45,510 nt of DNA from a virus (lineage: Duplodnaviria; Heunggongvirae; Uroviricota; Caudoviricetes): the IMG/VR virus record IMGVR_UViG_2778261177_000004, positions 1 to 45,510 of that record; one strand, given 5' to 3'. The translations under genes and the position numbers were made by a program. Numbering within the stretch: the first letter of the stretch is position 1; each line of letters opens with the position of its first letter. This document shows positions 1 through 8,058 of this stretch, piece by piece. The notes below the pieces were generated by a model. It worked only from the letters and a program-made list of their open reading frames with translations. It made no database searches and was not told where the DNA came from.

Positions 1-266
1 AACGTTCTCATGATGAACTGGTAGCTGACGCTGAACAGAAAAAACAGTCGCTGATTGATACCGCAATGGCTTCCATTAGTTTTATTCAACTGAAATTACA
101 GGCCGGGCGGAATCTTACGCAGGCTGAAACCACCCGACTTAACACTGTGATGGATTATATCGATGAACTGAATGCTCTTGATTTTACTGGCATTGCAGAC
201 AATATAGACGTTGATGCGATTGTCTGGCCCACAATTCCCGACGAAGACAAAAACGTTGAAATGTGA
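1..266 (+). CDS. tail fiber assembly protein, C-terminal fragment (5'-partial; alternative U'-like copy)
   Basis: ORF is open from the window edge (frame of nt 3) to the stop at 264-266. Its C-terminus (...DVDAIVWPTIP) parallels the C-terminus (...DADISWPEMP) of the convergent Tfa at 485-907. A hairpin plus T-run follows. Confidence 0.5.
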   Translation, partial: RSHDELVADAEQKKQSLIDTAMASISFIQLKLQAGRNLTQAETTRLNTVMDYIDELNALDFTGIADNIDVDAIVWPTIPDEDKNVEM

Positions 267-336
267 GACTTCAAAAGCGTCATTCAGTGAATATAATACC
301 GACTCTCTCAGATACTACTAACTGGGTATTCATTAT

Positions 337-370
337 GCCCGCCGTCATTGACTAGACGGCGGGCTTTTTT
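337..370 (+). terminator. rho-independent terminator (GC stem gcccgccgtc/gacggcgggc followed by TTTTTT)
   Basis: Perfect 10-bp GC-rich inverted repeat with an 8-nt loop and a T6 run, immediately after the partial plus-strand CDS. Confidence 0.55.
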
Positions 371-484
371 GTACCGAAGGACCGCATTGCTCAAAAAATC
401 ACAAAACCGCACGCTAATGAAGCCCTCAACAAAAGAGGGCTTGAAATATCAAAAAAGCAGTGCTGATTGGATTGTTATGATTGT

Positions 485-907
485 TTATGCAGGCATCTCA
501 GGCCATGAGATATCTGCATCAACAGAAGTGTCAACTCTATTAAGAAGAACTCTATACCTCTTTAACTTTGTCAACATTTCTATTTCCTCATCAGTGGCAA
601 TATCCATATCAACAGCATCCTGAAGCGTTGATATTTTTATGCTCACATCATTAATAAGACTACTTTTGGTGTTTTCAGCAATGCTGACTCTATCCTCTAA
701 GCTCATAGGTTGTGGGTCAGATAACATTGGATAACCATCGCCATTTGCAATTATTATTTTCCCATTGCCATACCCTGATAACAATTCATCATATAAGTCA
801 TCAGGTATATGTACAGCATCTGACGGCCATGAACCGTTTTTATCGTAATCTTCTTTTAGTCTATCGTCGTAGAAACCACCAGTATCTTTGCTGTAATACT
901 TTGCCAT
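485..907 (-). CDS. tail fiber assembly protein (Tfa / P1 U-like chaperone)
   Basis: 140-aa ORF directly downstream of the tail fiber gene. N-terminus MAKYYSKDTGGFYDD and C-terminus ...LLNRVDTSVDADISWPEMPA are typical of Tfa-family chaperones, and the position matches. Confidence 0.7.
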   Translation of the reverse strand: MAKYYSKDTGGFYDDRLKEDYDKNGSWPSDAVHIPDDLYDELLSGYGNGKIIIANGDGYPMLSDPQPMSLEDRVSIAENTKSSLINDVSIKISTLQDAVDMDIATDEEIEMLTKLKRYRVLLNRVDTSVDADISWPEMPA

Positions 908-938
908 TTAAAAGCCTTCATTCTAATTAACTATATTT

Positions 939-3900
939 TTAATACCCATAAGCAACATACTGTGCATATACTTTATCAGTGGAGCTACTTTTTACTGTAA
1001 AACCAGTGGCTGAGTTGTTGTATGTATAAAGAATTGCATTAACAGCATTCCCGCTATTAGGTGAAATCACAACTACCGCACACGCCTCAGGAAAAGCAGT
1101 CGGAAATTTAACTACGCTTCCTGGAGTAACAGCCGCTATAATACCCCACTGCATCATCACCTTAGTTGATGTATCCTTATGCCATCCATGAATGTTGGCA
1201 TATGCTGTGTTTTTAGCCTGATATTTCGTGTTGAAATTACTATAGTTACCAGGGGTAATCTGACCAGCGGCAGATAAATTCCCCATAACCCTTACATGGC
1301 CATCAGCACGTCCTAATTCTACGCGACCATCACCGCCATCTATCTTTAATGGAGTGTAAACGACATCACCATTAACATTTTGCCCAGTGGTTGATATCTG
1401 GAAACTATATCCAGTATTAGTTATTAGGAATCCATAGTTATTATTATAAGTTAGGCGTATAGCATTTTGGCTGCTGGATATAATTTCACCGGTAACAGTA
1501 CCACCTGTTGTTGGTAACGCACCAACATGACTTGCCGTTAATGTGATATCTGCAGAACCATCAAAAGCCACGCCACTTATTTTTCTGGCAGTTTTTAACT
1601 TTGTAGCTGTAGCTGCATTGCCACTTGTATTTTGATTCCCGGCAATATTAACGCCCGGAAGATTGATGTTTGCTGAACCATCAAACGAAACCCCGCCTAT
1701 TGTGCGTGCTGTTTGCAGTTTTGTGGCAGTTGCAGCATTGCCGGTAGTGCTCTGATTGCCTGTTTTATTCACGCCCGGCAGGTCGATGTTTGCGGTGCCA
1801 TTAAATGAAACGCCACCAATGGTTCTTGCCGTTTGTAATTTCGTTGCAGACGCCGCGTTTCCAGTTGTGTTCTGGTTGCCTGTTGTATTTACACCAGGGA
1901 TGGAATCCTTCGATGTGTAGACCTGCGCCCACTCAGACCATGCAGCATCTGTTGAATCCCTGCGAGAGCGAATGAAAGCCGGTGCATGAGCACCACTAGT
2001 CCCACTCCAGCCAATGAGCAGCTCACCTTCACCAACGGCAGTAGATCCCTTCAGGTGAAGTAGATTCCCGTAAGTCGTGGGGTAACCATTGTTGTACACC
2101 TCATACATCTGCAATCCAGTGGTAGCACCTTGCGTTGTGCTGGTAAGCGCAGTAACACGCCCTCTGGACGTAATTGTTGGTATCGAAATGTTCGCAGAAC
2201 CATCAAACTTAACACCGTTGATTGTGCGGGCTGTTTGCAGTTTTGTAGCGGTTGCAGCATTACCTGTTGTGTTCTGGTTACCGGCAATGTTCACACCCGG
2301 CAGGTTGATATTGGCGGTGCCATCAAATGCCACCCCGCCGATTGTGCGTGCCGTCTGAAGTTTCGTTGCGGTTGCAGCATTACCGGTTGTGCTCTGATTA
2401 CCTGTTTTATTTACGCCTGGAAGATCGATATTGGCACTACCATCGAATGACACTCCGCCTATTGTGCGTGCTGTTTGCAGTTTTGTGGCAGTTGCAGCAT
2501 TGCCGGTAGTGCTCTGATTGCCTGTTTTATTCACGCCCGGCAGGTCGATGTTTGCGGTGCCATTAAATGAAACGCCACCAATGGTTCTTGCCGTTTGTAA
2601 TTTCGTTGCAGACGCCGCGTTTCCAGTTGTGTTCTGGTTGCCTGTTGTATTTACACCAGGGATGGAATCCTTCGATGTGTAGACCTGCGCCCACTCAGAC
2701 CATGCAGCATCTGTTGAATCCCTGCGAGAGCGAATGAAAGCCGGTGCATGAGCACCACTAGTCCCACTCCAGCCAATGAGCAGCTCACCTTCACCAACGG
2801 CAGTAGATCCCTTCAGGTGAAGTAGATTCCCGTAAGTCGTGGGGTAACCATTGTTGTACACCTCATACATCTGCAATCCAGTGGTAGCACCTTGCGTTGT
2901 GCTGGTAAGCGCAGTAACACGCCCTCTGGACGTAATTGTTGGTATCGAAATGTTCGCAGAACCATCAAACTTAACACCGTTGATTGTGCGGGCTGTTTGC
3001 AGTTTTGTAGCGGTTGCAGCATTACCTGTTGTGTTCTGGTTACCGGCAATGTTCACACCCGGCAGGTTGATATTAGCGGTGCCATCAAACGCCACTCCGC
3101 CAATTGTGCGTGCCGTTTGAAGTTTCGTTGCGGTTGCAGCATTGCCAGTAGTGCTCTGATTACCTGTTTTATTAACGCCCGGCAGGTCGATATTGGCGGT
3201 GCCATCAAATGCCACCCCGCCGATTGTGCGGGCTGTCTGAAGTTTCGTTGCGGTTGCGGCATTGCCGCTTGTGTTCTGGTTACCAGCAACGTTCACGCCT
3301 GGCAGGTTGATATCTGCCGAACCGTCAAATGCCACCCCGCCGATCTTGCGAGACGCCTGAAGTTTCGTTGCGGTTGCAGCATTACCGGTTGTGCTCTGAT
3401 TGCCTGCTTTATTCACGCCCGGCAGGTCGATATTGGCGGTGCCATCAAATGACACTCCGCCGATCGTTCGAGCTGTCTTGAGCTTTGTGGCAGTATCGGC
3501 GTTCCCGGTCAGCGTACCAGTAATCCCACCGCCAACTTTTACGCCGTTACCGATGGACACCAACCCAGTTCTTAAGTTTATAGAAAATGGTCTTAATGGC
3601 CCGATGTCACCATTTTCACCCTCCCCTTCATTTGTCGGGATAAGATGAAGATATTCCTCGGATCTCCTGAAGATAAGGCCAAAGGCCTGGTTAAATATTC
3701 GAAGGGCATTTATTGTGCCAATTTTTAGCTGCCCCCCCATTGTGTCGCCAGAACGCTGAACTGCGTTACCAGCTTGAGAAGCAATATCCGTTAAGCCAAG
3801 ATCTTCAGGGGTAAGAGTAATATCTGCCGAACCGTCAAATGCCACCCCGTTAATCTTTCTGGCTGTTTTTAATTTCGTCGCGGTATCGGCGTTCCCGGTC

Positions 3901-5210
3901 AGCGTACCAGTGATCCCCGCGCTGAAAGTCTGGCGTGCATTCCATGTGTTAGCCGTGCTCAACAGGGGGATTTTTTCACCGCTGGTACCGAGTTCTCTTA
4001 AACCAAGGTATTGGATAACAGCCAGAGTGCTTGTTTTAGCCAGAATATCGCGACCGACTGACGTTAAATCAGTCTGGGCTACAGTGTCTGTTCCGGTAAA
4101 GTACGGTAATTTATTTGCTCCCGTCGCCAGGCCAGCGAGCGCGGTTAAGGTTGCGTCGAGAGGCTGCTTACCTGCCAGGGCATTTGTCATTGTAGTCGCA
4201 AAGTTCGGGTCATTGCCCAGTGCTGCGGCAAGCTCATTCAGGGTATCAAGAGCTTCTGGTGATGAGCCGACCAATGCAGAAATAGCGGCACGAACATAAG
4301 CGGTTGTTGCAATCTGAGTGTTGTTCGTACCTTGTGACGCCGTAGGAGCTGTTGGAACCCCCGTAAATGCCGGGCTTAATAACGGCGCTTTAAGAGCTAA
4401 CGCATCATTAATCGTCTGGCTAAACTGGGGATCATTGTTTATTGCATCTGCAATTTTTTTCAGCGTATCCAACGCTGAAGGAGAACCATCAATAAGGGCG
4501 GTTATTGCGGCCTGAACAAAGGCAGTGTTTGCGATTTGTGTACTGTTTGTACCTTGTTCCGGAGTTGGAGATTTAGGTATACCAATAAACTCCGGGCTAT
4601 CAACCGGAGCTTTTAGTTTGTTTAACGTGCTGATAGCAAGAGGTGTTGCGGCTTTATATTCTTCGTCACTATCCAAAGCACTGGAAAACTCAACACCAAC
4701 AGCACGATTAGCACGATATTCAGTGCTAATCATATCTGCGGTAACGGCTTGAGCATTGTCAGGCACGATCACGCGGCATAGCTCAATCTGGTTAGATGCT
4801 ATTTCCTCATCAACGAGAGCAATAATTCTCGCTGCGCTAATATCCGATGAACTATCTACCTGGCTGGTTTTCACTCCATGTTCGTAATTAGCTTCAAGAA
4901 CGATGATTGTCGTTACACCAGCTTCTACAGGAACAAGAACATCACTGACTTGCTGCACGGATATCTGACATTTACCCACGTCAATTGAAGCCGCCCCTCT
5001 TCCCTCTGTTTTCTCGGATGTAATCCGCACAAACAGACCATCCCCTGGCACCGGTTCAAACCCACAGTACACTCCGGGCAGAACGATATTTTTCATCTTC
5101 CTGTTTAGAGCTTCGGTGCTATACAGCTCAAAGTATTGCATGTCTGCAATTAGTGGAGCGGAAATGTCCGAAGATAAGGTGACAATATTCTTTACTTTAT
5201 CTGCGCACAT
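939..5210 (-). CDS. long tail fiber protein (P1 S-like), 1423 aa, with internal repeats
   Basis: Very long ORF with about 40-aa repeats ([28 protein letters not shown]...) typical of phage tail fibers. It sits between baseplate genes and the Tfa gene. Confidence 0.8.
1693..3074 (-). repeat. tandem direct duplication of a 762-bp unit (copy A about 1693-2312, copy B about 2455-3074), embedded in a roughly 120-bp periodic repeat array spanning about 1560-3500
   Basis: Same sequence found at offset 762 (e.g. ccggtagtgctctgattgcc at 1741 and 2503); identical overlapping ORFs at 2051..2287 and 2813..3049 in the supplied track; a 254-aa block occurs twice in the tail fiber protein. Confidence 0.85.
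3993..4018. other. candidate site-specific invertase crossover site (hix/gix/cix-like 26-bp site) inside the tail fiber gene
   Basis: ttctcttaaaccaaggtattggataa matches hixL (TTCTTGAAAACCAAGGTTTTTGATAA, recalled from memory) at 21 of 26 positions including the AAACCAAGGT core. One half-site, TTATCCAATACC, is close to the Din-family consensus. Confidence 0.4.
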
Positions 5211-5212
5211 AA

Positions 5213-5659
5213 TTATCCCTCGACCTGTTCAATGGTCATGAGCAAGCTGTATCGCTTACCTTTGAATAAGGTGTCCTGTTGAGTGCAAACAACCCCAAAA
5301 GCCTGATCCTCTGCATCTACGAGAACCAGCGTATTGAAATCGTAAGGTGTATCGTCCGGCATCGTTTCTTGTGGAAAAGCGGCATTAATCGTAATGACAC
5401 CATCGAGGCTGGAAAGAATGAGATTGGATTCAGCAAAATGCTGTGCATCACTTAACTTGAAGTCGAGCGGAATATCAGAAATAGTCCAGCCACCAGCACT
5501 ATTTACCGTCACAAGATCTGACTTGCACCAATAAGCCTTTGTCATAACAAAACGCTCACCCCTGCCGATTGCAGACTCTGCACGGCGAGAGTAGTAGTAA
5601 GAAAGGAGTTGCGCCTTGTAAATACTTGAATCGCTTTGAGATTTTAAAGTTTCAGCCAT
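5213..5659 (-). CDS. tail fiber-associated / baseplate protein (position of P1 R), function uncertain
   Basis: 148-aa ORF whose stop abuts the tail fiber start; assignment by synteny only. Confidence 0.4.
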
Positions 5660-5775
5660 AAGAACATAGCCCCTTTAACAAGCAATAAATCGAAGGGCAG
5701 TATGTTCAGTTTGTGATTTCCGGTGGTCTTCTGTTTTAAGAAATGGCCCCACCCAGTTTGGCGGGGCCTGGTTTG

Positions 5776-6627: not shown

Positions 6628-8058
6628 TTACGGATAGGTTATGCTGAACGTTGATGATTCCACGTCCAGATAAACAAAATCATTAAAGTACACAGCTTCT
6701 TTCATGTTCTGCGTAGCCACGTCATAAGACAGGAACATATCCAGCGATTCGATTACTCGCCAGATATCTTTTACTTTGACCTGTGCATAACATTGCTGTG
6801 AGTCGTCATCACTCTGCAATAGCTGGCTAAATGACATGGAGTCTTTACCGAAGTTCTCCTCCAGTGCCGCTTTAATTGCAGTTAGCGCGTCATCCACCAG
6901 CACACTCTTTTTTACGATACCGGTAAATTTGATGTTGAACGGCTGTTCATTGGTGGCGACGTATTCGAACTTCTTATTCAGCTCATTAGGGATACTCTCA
7001 AGGGCTGATAATATCTCTGTTTTCAGAGCTTCCTGTGTTACGCCGGGCTTATGCCCACAAAAGAAAATTTTGTTGATATTACGCACATCAAAGCCCGTTA
7101 TTTTCTCCTGTAGCGCCTCCCCCCACACGTTAAGCCATGACGTGCCACTGACCACGTTCTGAATGAACTGGCGGTAATCACCGCCCCAAACAACCTGCTC
7201 ATCGTAGGCCACATAATACTGCGCCCTGTTTCGGGTTTCCTCGGTAGTTTCCATGCCACCACCGCCAGAAATGATCGAATCGGTTTTTACTTCCAGTGAT
7301 TCGACATACCCGGAGATGTTCCCTGCTGGTTCAAGTTTCTGGCCTTCAGCCAGCGTGTAATCACCGAGGCTTGCCATAATATCAATGCGTACCTGACTCC
7401 CTGCCGCTGGCATCATCCCCATTGATCCATCACCGAAGCGCACGCCGATCTGTTCTGTCGGCTTATAAACCAACACATAATGTTTACTGTTATCCCTGGA
7501 CATGCGGAATAGGGGGTTATGTGTCCATTTTTCCTCGACACCATTAGTTATCACGACAACTTCCAGGCTGGCGACTTCTGCTGTTAACTCACGGGAAAGT
7601 AACAACGTCAGGAATGGTGTTTCTTGCACCACGTCGAACGTTATGCTGACTGCTTCATGCTGTTTTACTTCTATTCCGGATACTGTTTCACCAGCAGGGA
7701 TAACAACACTACTGCTGGTTGCAATTGGTGTCTGGTCACTTGTCAGTAATTCAGCCCCTCCGGGTAGCGTAATATCCCTGTCGGTTTTGTTGGTGATGGA
7801 AACAGTGCCGTATGACGCATCGACCAAACGACCGACATAGCCACGGTCTTCCGCTGCCGCGAGAATACTTGCTCTGCGCGTCGCGGTGGAAATGAATCCT
7901 TCTGTAAGTGCACGGCTTGCAAATGTACGCGCAATATAAACAATCTGCGCGCCCAAAACGGACTGCATTTGAATAAACTGGCTGTTTACAAATCGCGCCC
8001 ACCAGGGGTTTTCGTTCAGCTTGGCATTAAACTTGTCCAGTAATTCGGTAATACTCAC
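6628..8058 (-). CDS. baseplate wedge protein (gpJ / gp6-like; P1 bplA position)
   Basis: 476-aa ORF immediately downstream of, and overlapping, the gp25-like gene, as in P2 W-J and T4 25-6 arrangements. Confidence 0.5.
   Translation of the reverse strand: MSITELLDKFNAKLNENPWWARFVNSQFIQMQSVLGAQIVYIARTFASRALTEGFISTATRRASILAAAEDRGYVGRLVDASYGTVSITNKTDRDITLPGGAELLTSDQTPIATSSSVVIPAGETVSGIEVKQHEAVSITFDVVQETPFLTLLLSRELTAEVASLEVVVITNGVEEKWTHNPLFRMSRDNSKHYVLVYKPTEQIGVRFGDGSMGMMPAAGSQVRIDIMASLGDYTLAEGQKLEPAGNISGYVESLEVKTDSIISGGGGMETTEETRNRAQYYVAYDEQVVWGGDYRQFIQNVVSGTSWLNVWGEALQEKITGFDVRNINKIFFCGHKPGVTQEALKTEILSALESIPNELNKKFEYVATNEQPFNIKFTGIVKKSVLVDDALTAIKAALEENFGKDSMSFSQLLQSDDDSQQCYAQVKVKDIWRVIESLDMFLSYDVATQNMKEAVYFNDFVYLDVESSTFSITYP

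Follow-up and report, generated by a model that had tools for sequence, protein, structure and literature searches.

The tail-fibre region at the beginning of this DNA is best read, with a probability that we place at about 75%, as the visible half of a Cin/cix-type invertible tail-fibre segment in a D6-like E. coli plasmid prophage. Its central element, at 3993-4018, is cixR itself, which sits where the constant part of the fibre gene S meets the variable part, and it is accompanied by the chaperone gene U and by the 3' end of a convergent second chaperone gene, U'. The window (the whole stretch analysed, 45.5 kb) is the complete draft contig NLOX01000033.1 and ends within U'; because of this, the partner site and invertase of this genome are out of view. 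The C-segment-like arrangement proposed in an earlier note on this DNA is borne out by what the site is and by its placement in frame, by U and the remaining 3' end of U', and by the synteny with D6 and P7. Homology of the region to the C-segment is close to certain; that the switch is complete and active in the source strain is a separate claim, which we regard as likely.

Organization of the fibre locus

The features discussed below are the following:

1..266, plus strand: 3' part of U', comprising its last 87 codons with the stop at 264-266, truncated where the contig ends; Pfam PF02413, E=1.3e-14
337..364, plus strand: GC-rich hairpin with a T run, terminator-like, between the convergent U' and U
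485..907, minus strand: U, tail-fibre assembly chaperone for Sv, 140 aa; Pfam PF02413, E=3e-34
939-5210, minus strand: S, tail-fibre gene, a single uninterrupted ORF of 1423 aa
939..4005, minus strand: Sv, variable C-terminal part of S in its currently expressed form, with shaft repeats, knob blocks and a Gp53-like_C tip
1676..3199, minus strand: in-frame tandem duplication of 762 bp within Sv, two copies, 620 bp perfectly identical
3993..4018, no strand assigned: cixR crossover site, TTCTCTTAAACC-AA-GGTATTGGATAA, central crossover dinucleotide at 4005-4006
4006..5210, minus strand: Sc, constant N-terminal part of S, about 401 codons, ORF from the ATG at 5210
5213..5659, minus strand: R, tail-fibre gene directly upstream of S; precomputed Pfam hit PF26881 Phage_P1_tail_fiber_R

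Both chaperone genes anticipated by the earlier note, one at 485-907 on the minus strand and a convergent one running to 266 on the plus strand, are matched by PF02413 with the E-values listed above. U holds the same position in D6 and P7. The partial frame at 3-266 (plus strand) matches profile positions 61-130 of 131, which is the C-terminal half of a second chaperone, and this fragment is 100% identical to the C-terminus of a 148-aa protein (P0001) that follows Sv' in contigs L015-L019. U' is the chaperone that belongs to the alternative, silent tip of the fibre; unlike the D6 allele, it is a mosaic with a P1-plasmid-like part. The hairpin between U' and U is conserved in L003 and L005. As for the abrupt end of the contig, the first 165 bp are 97.6% identical to chaperone genes elsewhere in E. 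coli, and because this stretch recurs, a repeat-induced break within U' offers itself as an explanation; a second assembly (L010) breaks at the same base.

Over 3844-4556 the DNA of the constant part of S agrees with P1 Sc at 84-85% identity, the constant part also being 97-98% identical to D6-like plasmids, and at the other end of the protein Pfam PF21882 matches residues 1351-1423. The 762-bp duplication is seen in this contig only and is missing from the near-identical contigs L010 and L015; its mismatch patterns fit both a real duplication and reads from Sv' mis-threaded into Sv. R occupies the same position in the D6 and P7 records, and in a separate scan at E<=0.001 it had no Pfam match. 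The P1 late-promoter motif is absent upstream of R, where D6-like plasmids share a different conserved stretch.

Beyond the fibre genes, the order sit-pmgA-bplA-16-R-S-U-U' is identical in the window and in the annotated D6 and P7 records. When window positions 5300-30000 were compared with a phage collection, D6 was the sole match (81% identity, 52% of the query covered). The closest records are E. coli plasmids of 89-95 kb, the nearest of which, NZ_CP085065.1, has an annotated gene for a RepB-family initiator. A tRNA scan found no tRNA genes in the window. Gene order and DNA similarity thus mark the window as belonging to a D6-like E. coli plasmid prophage.

The crossover site is cixR

The plus-strand sequence of 3993-4018, TTCTCTTAAACCAAGGTATTGGATAA, had been recognized in the earlier note as a 21-of-26 match to the hixL invertase site. 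Alignment to hixL (TTCTTGAAAACCAAGGTTTTTGATAA; Table 3, PMC3241671) gives exactly this figure, as does alignment to gixL (21/26), and a still closer relationship emerged with cixR: all 26 positions are identical to the published P1 cixR (Table 3, PMC3241671), to the P7 record (L002, 7534-7559, centred on the annotated cixR crossover) and to the D6 record (L020, 7528-7553, overlapping the annotated cixR feature). The 26-mer occurs once in the window when up to 3 mismatches are allowed, and shuffled sequences lead one to expect 0 copies. Its location at about residue 400 of the fibre, also proposed earlier, is correct: the site lies in frame within codons 398-406 (VIQYLGLRE) of the 1423-aa S.

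One reading of such a match, raised already in the earlier note, is that it is simply a conserved coding motif with no role in recombination, as might be found in non-invertible fibre genes. The 26-mer is indeed intact in several relatives that lack cin, Sv' and U', and the protein sequence around VIQYLGLRE is likewise highly conserved; the 26-mer alone is therefore no proof of a working switch. Because the window still has U', this objection does not apply to it directly. Several observations speak against a purely coding role, which we consider extremely improbable. The base-for-base identity with the annotated and published P1, P7 and D6 crossovers goes beyond similarity at the protein level. 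The flanking codons show synonymous variation but those within the site show none: the 15 cixR positions outside the search core are invariant in 10 haplotypes, with 24 of 90 and 34 of 90 columns varying on the two flanks. In relatives, moreover, the inverted partner coincides precisely with the point where Sv' begins and cin has its 3' end, and natural segments (L021 and L022) are inverted at this very point.

Partner site, invertase and silent fibre tip

The earlier note had placed the partner site and the invertase just beyond the window start. Within the 45.5-kb window no second or inverted cix-like site was detected with the 26-mer (<=3 mismatches), a 10-nt core or a core regular expression, the contig ending inside the segment. 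A tblastn search with the 134 proteins of the P0121 set (120 invertase homologues and 14 LydB homologues) likewise gave no match to a resolvase homologue in the window, the expected position of which lies beyond the contig end. Exact-pattern scans of IMG/VR returned no match to the mosaic U' sequence or to the cix flank/Sv start; the contexts of the LydB homologue P0241 contained only D6-type alleles, from other samples, and those of the invertase representatives P0121 and P0192 were D6-type only.

Neither element is thus found in this contig, but the sequences that continue past its end agree with the proposal. Two contigs, L016 and L019, are 100% identical to window positions 1-1390 and 1-1722, respectively, and both extend into a full 148-aa U'. 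In L016 the Sv' frame can be read from contig base 3 onwards and lacks a start, base 1 being the base that adjoins the cix flank. Joining Sc to this Sv' in silico yields an uninterrupted fibre of 1096 aa with a Gly_rich_2 tip and no internal stop; the start-less Sv' and its in-frame joining were assessed on L016 rather than on the source genome. The partner in L005, translated by hand, is also a start-less Sv' that joins Sc in frame.

Further relatives supply the missing half of the segment. L005, L008 and L011 carry a 140-aa U identical to that of the window, together with U', Sv' and a Resolvase+HTH_7 gene, the 3' end of which is overlapped by an inverted partner site (L005 in detail). The inverted partner site is also present in L003, D6 and P7, and the serine invertase gene also in D6 and P7; a Fis-dependent recombinational enhancer within cin is annotated in P7. 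L014, which has this U as well, ends inside Sv', and contigs with the U'/Sv' allele of the window all stop short of cin. Sv', cixL, cin and both orientations are seen in relatives only; by analogy with these, we infer that Sv', cixL and cin are probably present and intact in this genome and that the segment would be about 6.3 kb long.

Compared with phage D6, L021 and L022 carry the segment flipped, and the breakpoints fall at cix, so that both orientations occur among D6-like plasmids. The flipped state was found in none of the roughly 15 contigs of the window's allele group. When an in-silico flipped Sc-Sv' junction (207-aa type) was compared with all complete E. coli genomes, the D6-like plasmids among the matches listed covered the Sc half only, and only 2 chromosomal prophage fibres (H108 and H124) matched across the junction, which gives no indication of flipping for this allele. 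The contig reads straight through cixR, which indicates that one orientation was dominant in the sequenced culture.

Proposed mechanism and alternatives

In the captured orientation, the late operon R-S-U would express Sc (5210-4006) fused at cixR to Sv (4005-939), along with U (907-485). On the opposite strand, the end of U' at 1-266 would be preceded, past the contig end, by an Sv' lacking promoter and start, which in the identical contigs encodes a glycine-rich tip, and beyond Sv' the 3' end of the serine invertase gene cin would be expected to overlap with a cixL in inverted orientation. With the help of Fis and of an enhancer located in its gene, Cin would cleave the two cix sites at their central AA/TT, rotate them and rejoin them. 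Such a flip, of about 6.3 kb, would bring Sc into frame with Sv', lead to co-expression of U' and change the receptor specificity. With a textbook cixR in its fibre gene, the prophage probably switches back and forth between two receptor specificities, one conferred by the Gp53-like tip and the other by the glycine-rich tip.

The alternative that deserves most weight, albeit one we consider unlikely, is that the region is a frozen descendant of a C-segment in which the invertase, cixL or Sv' has been deleted, interrupted or mutated, so that the fibre is locked as Sc-Sv with U and cixR persists as coding sequence only. Such locked forms occur often in the nearest relatives: in NZ_CP085065.1 and about 15 similar complete plasmids, and likewise in L006, L007, L012 and L013, U is followed directly by lydA, and in L004 and L023 the recombinase and chaperone genes exist only as fragments. 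Every derivative in which the site region is covered (NZ_CP085065.1, L004, L012 and L023) retains cixR at 26/26. The break inside U' could also mark the insertion of an IS element, and an IS26-family transposase does adjoin the segment in L021. On the other hand, the deletion variants without cin that share the window's U also lack U', of which the window keeps at least 264 bp with its stop intact, and L016 and L019, identical over the overlap, go on into intact U' and Sv'. The break itself can be explained by the repeat at bp 1-165 and recurs in L010. In any case, locked derivatives that kept the site after loss of the invertase are numerous among the D6-like and P1-like plasmids of E. coli, and a cix match alone should not be taken as an active host-range switch.

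A different kind of alternative concerns the route of inversion, which might be mainly RecA-dependent, proceeding through long Sv/Sv' inverted repeats instead of Cin and cix and swapping only the distal tips and chaperones. Such repeats exist: positions 75-1415 of L016 repeat window positions 2187-3527 in inverted orientation (98.8%, about 840 bp identical), L003 has a 438-nt inverted repeat (92%), and short-read assemblies (L017-L019) break the segment at the Sv/Sv' inverted repeats. We nevertheless consider this route very unlikely to be the main one, as relatives have kept the invertase along with both cix sites, the alignments of D6 with L022 switch at cix (if blurred by a repeat beside it) and Cin-mediated inversion is the established route in P1. 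The two routes are compatible rather than mutually exclusive. A more speculative extension, doubtful on present evidence, is that the segment of this lineage has grown to about 6.3 kb with more than 1.3 kb of near-identical inverted shaft/knob repeats common to Sv and Sv' and now works as a two-level switch, with Cin acting at cix and homologous exchange taking place in the repeats, perhaps with variable shaft length, as the 762-bp duplication might exemplify. If true, this would combine tip switching with shuffling of fibre length and domains.

Comparison with known systems

The inversion region of P1 has been described, as has a tail-fibre inversion region in D6-like plasmids, where it is the most variable region among them (PMC6799933). 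The Cin/cix mechanism is already known, and what the window shows in part is an unexceptional example of it. The importance of this example lies mostly in annotation, the draft contig being a D6-like phage-plasmid with a textbook cixR in its fibre gene, and it accounts for the breaks at the fibre locus in short-read assemblies of such plasmids.

The C-segments of P1 and P7 resemble the window in having an identical cixR 26-mer at the Sc/Sv junction, in the same frame and with the same motif, in the convergence of U and U', in the position of R upstream of S, and in Sc DNA that is 83-85% identical near the site. However, the backbone of the window is D6-like rather than P1-like, its Sv has shaft repeats, knob blocks and a Gp53-like tip, and cin, cixL and Sv' are off its contig. 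Relative to P7 in particular, Sv is about 1020 aa long in the window as opposed to about 520 aa, a single 140-aa U replaces the pair Ua/Ub, and the segment is predicted to be about 6.3 kb, compared to about 4.0 kb as annotated in P7.

D6 (GenBank MF356679) shares the order lydA-cin-cixL-S'-U'-U-S(cixR)-R-16-bplA-pmgA-sit as far as the window reaches, and of the 24.7 kb of backbone compared, half aligns, at 81% identity. The two differ in their alleles of S, U and U', with 29% of window positions 1-5300 aligning, at about 81%.

More distant parallels are provided by the Mu G-segment (Gin/gix), which also has the constant fibre part outside and alternative variable parts and chaperones inside the invertible segment, and a related site (gixL, 21/26), although Mu is another type of phage with a central GA instead of AA, a 3-kb segment and non-syntenic neighbouring genes. 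The Salmonella Hin/hix flagellar switch likewise relies on a recombinase of the Din family and a related 26-bp site (hixL, 21/26), but Hin flips a promoter whereas here the 3' end of a coding sequence would be exchanged, and hin lies inside its own segment whereas the invertase lies outside the segment in the relatives of the window.

A P1-type crossover site in the tail-fibre gene

The tail-fibre end of the window contains the following features, where S denotes the fibre gene, and U and U' denote the assembly chaperones of its expressed and its silent alternative end (Sv and Sv', respectively):

3993-4018, within S: cixR crossover site, TTCTCTTAAACCAAGGTATTGGATAA, 26/26 identical to cixR of P1
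939-5210, minus strand: S, an uninterrupted fibre ORF of 1423 aa whose C-terminus matches Gp53-like_C
485-907, minus strand: U, tail-fibre assembly gene, 140 aa (PF02413, E=3e-34)
1-266, plus strand: U', the C-terminal 87 residues of another tail-fibre assembly protein (PF02413, E=1.3e-14)
337-364: hairpin with a T run, between the converging U and U'

An earlier note had described a hixL-like site inside a tail fibre gene, with a Tfa gene next to it and a second, convergent Tfa-like ORF at the window start, and had proposed a C-segment-like invertible segment. This observation is confirmed in full: the site occupies codons 398-406 (VIQYLGLRE) of S, both Tfa genes are recognized by PF02413, and the reported count of 21/26 matches to hixL is reproduced when the reference string is taken as printed in Table 3 of PMC3241671. 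When the alignment is extended to the known cix sites, as the note had proposed, P1 cixR (TTCTCTTAAACC-AA-GGTATTGGATAA; Table 3, PMC3241671) matches at every position. In phage P7 the same 26-mer (7534-7559) has the annotated cixR crossover (7546/7547) at its centre, and in phage D6 (7528-7553) it overlaps the annotated cixR feature. It is present as a single copy in the window with up to three mismatches permitted, where none would be expected by chance. Among 10 haplotypes retrieved via an 11-nt core, 0/15 of the remaining site positions vary, compared with 24/90 and 34/90 columns of the two flanks, where the changes are mostly synonymous; this suggests constraint on cixR at the DNA level, although the count is rough and, the haplotypes being interrelated, indicative only.

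Within the window itself, cixR lies in frame at the junction between the constant (Sc) and variable (Sv) parts of the fibre, Sv and U lie behind R, oriented for expression, and U' runs towards them. The complete cixR match, the in-frame junction, the converging chaperone genes and the gene order of P7 and D6 all support the C-segment interpretation, and we regard homology to the C-segment as nearly certain (probability about 0.97).

The window is the complete draft contig NLOX01000033.1 (assembly GCA_002230545.1), a 45,510-bp record that encodes the identical U and whose genes are placed exactly as in the window; the contig end interrupts U'. Upstream of S are R, gp16, bplA, pmgA and sit, in the order annotated in P7 and D6, and, of the phages in the collection, only D6 is similar in DNA to positions 5300-30000 (81% identity, 52% of the query). 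E. coli plasmids of 89-95 kb are the nearest relatives on record; the annotation of the most similar one, NZ_CP085065.1, includes a RepB-family initiator gene. Based on this gene order, the phage similarity confined to D6 and these plasmid relatives, the element is assigned as a D6-like plasmid prophage. Upstream of R (5660-5775), the P1/P7 late-promoter -22 motif (AAGTTACTT) is absent; a conserved stretch in common with phage D6, ACGGAAATCACAAACTGA.CATACT, is a candidate late promoter for the D6 group.

The remainder of the segment in matching contigs and relatives

As neither a second cix-like site nor a resolvase homologue was found in the window, relatives were examined for the rest of the segment (L-numbers denote the contigs and records compared). 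Five contigs encode a 148-aa protein, P0001, whose C-terminus matches the 87-residue U' fragment at 100% identity. L016 and L019 are 100% identical to window positions 1-1390 and 1-1722, respectively, and L017 and L018 differ from the window by one base each. L016 reaches 2252 bp past the window start and contains all of U'; directly upstream of U' is a frame that is open from contig base 3, with a stop 689 codons on, and that encodes shaft repeats as in Sv but a glycine-rich terminal domain (PF21722). This frame looks like a silent, start-less Sv'. L016 starts at the equivalent of window base 3991 (minus strand), one base outside the 26-mer, and in-silico fusion of the window's Sc to L016 gives an uninterrupted fibre of 1096 aa. 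If the source genome is L016-like, the invertible segment would measure ~6.3 kb (4005 bp in the window and ~2265 bp outside).

Relatives alone show the serine invertase, Sv', a cixL in inverted orientation at the 3' end of cin, and both orientations of the segment. Three contigs with an identical 140-aa U (L005, L008 and L011) differ from the window in their U' (153 aa) and carry a short Sv' (a 207-aa called gene with a Gp53-like tip) and a Resolvase+HTH_7 gene of 190-216 aa that adjoins lydA; a fourth, L014, stops within Sv'. The Sv' frame of L005 opens with the partner site, TTCCTCTAAACCAAGGTTTGGGATTG, which is inverted relative to cixR and overlaps the invertase gene at its 3' end; the same site is equally placed relative to the invertase gene in L008 and L011. 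The complete plasmid NZ_CP159120.1 has a further version of this region (4560-5700), with:

4610-4750: original cin, cut to its first 47 codons
4963-5544, strand opposite to the original cin: a different recombinase gene
5609-5634, after the different recombinase gene: partner site TTCGCAAAAACCTTGGTTTAAGAGAA

The partner site is followed by an Sv' of 752 aa, and Sv' and Sv share an inverted repeat of 438 nt (92%). In L021, a transposase gene (1565-2269; product matching rve and DDE_Tnp_IS240) directly adjoins the alternative fibre cassette, and a Salmonella D6-like plasmid has been reported with IS26 in place of the tail-fibre inversion region (PMC6799933).

Orientation of the segment

With the invertase as anchor, we compared the orientation of phage D6 with that of two draft D6-like plasmids, L021 and L022. 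In both plasmids the whole S'-U'-U-Sv segment is opposite to that of D6 relative to cin: the alignment direction changes at the cix sites, and U' shares a strand with cin in D6 but not in L022. Judged from these alignments, both switch states exist in nature among D6-like plasmids. No flipped state of the window's own alleles was found among the contigs and genomes searched.

Many draft contigs of D6-like plasmids (L024-L029, position 1-40; L031, 9555-9591) start or stop no more than ~40 bases from the place of cixL at the 3' end of the invertase gene; L024-L027 start exactly at this gene end, and some such contigs are ~90 kb. The breaks are systematic, as expected of an assembler at a switch.

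A switchable segment or a locked relic

The main rival reading is that the source strain carries a locked relic. Many of the closest relatives are, by their gene content, locked derivatives: in NZ_CP085065.1 (L001; 8780-9700) and ~15 similar complete plasmids, U is followed directly by lydA, and U', Sv' and cin are gone, as they are in L006, L007, L012 and L013, while L004 and L023 have chaperone and recombinase genes only as fragments. Since cixR is kept 26/26 in every locked relative whose sequence spans the site region (L001, L004, L012 and L023), the site alone is no proof of an active switch. Unlike the deletion variants that share its U, however, the window retains U'. The contig break inside U' has a simple explanation in the first part of this mosaic gene: over bases 1-165, chaperone genes from P1-like plasmids (e.g. 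NZ_CP060935.1) and from at least one chromosomal locus match it at 97.6% identity. The remainder, bases 166-266, is similar to U' of the D6-like plasmid NZ_CP159120.1. A second assembly, L010, breaks at the identical base, and an IS insertion at this point is conceivable. Overall, we consider it probable that the segment is complete and switchable in the source strain, and unlikely that it is a locked relic.

In L023, two cix-like sites in direct orientation (384-409 and 1611-1636), cixR and a pix-like TTCTCCCAAACCAAGGTATGCGAGAA, lie within a single fibre gene. Behind this gene, a 100-aa ORF (2663-2965) matches both Resolvase and Caudo_TAP and looks like the result of a deletion fusing U' to cin.

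Repeats within the variable fibre ends

The fibre encoded in the window is of unusual length and rich in repeats. Sv contains an in-frame tandem duplication of 762 bp (1676-3199; copies 1676-2437 and 2438-3199), of which 620 bp are perfectly identical (1693-2312 = 2455-3074). The duplication adds 254 aa comprising a knob block and shaft repeats, and is not present in L010 and L015, two contigs that are otherwise nearly identical to the window. As window positions 2389-3230 also match the inverted Sv' of L016 at 100%, the duplication may be real or may be a short-read assembly path across the Sv/Sv' inverted repeat. This repeat of shaft and knob units is 1.34 kb long at 98.8% identity (L016 75-1415 vs window 2187-3527). 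Such long inverted repeats inside the invertible segment of the window's allele group could allow Cin-independent recombination, and would fragment short-read assemblies. L017-L019 are 2.6-2.8-kb contigs that hold only the segment centre, comprising U', U and the terminal parts of Sv' and Sv.

Comparison with known inversion systems

In the P1 Cin, Mu Gin and Salmonella Hin systems, inversion is brought about by invertase dimers on both sites together with Fis on an enhancer. By analogy, invertase dimers would bind the two cix sites and Fis the enhancer within cin, and cleavage at the central AA/TT, 180-degree rotation and religation would fuse Sc to Sv' and place U' under the late promoter; expression of Sc-Sv' and U' would then change the host range. 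A "tail fiber gene inversion region" with cin, gpS, gpU, gpU' and gpS' has already been reported as the most variable portion of D6-like plasmids (PMC6799933), and a summary of the P1 mechanism is given in bioRxiv 10.1101/2022.07.24.501295. The window's alleles differ from those of phage D6, whose annotated region aligns with just 29% of window positions 1-5300, at ~81% identity. Only half visible because the contig ends, the feature is a further example of a thoroughly known system.
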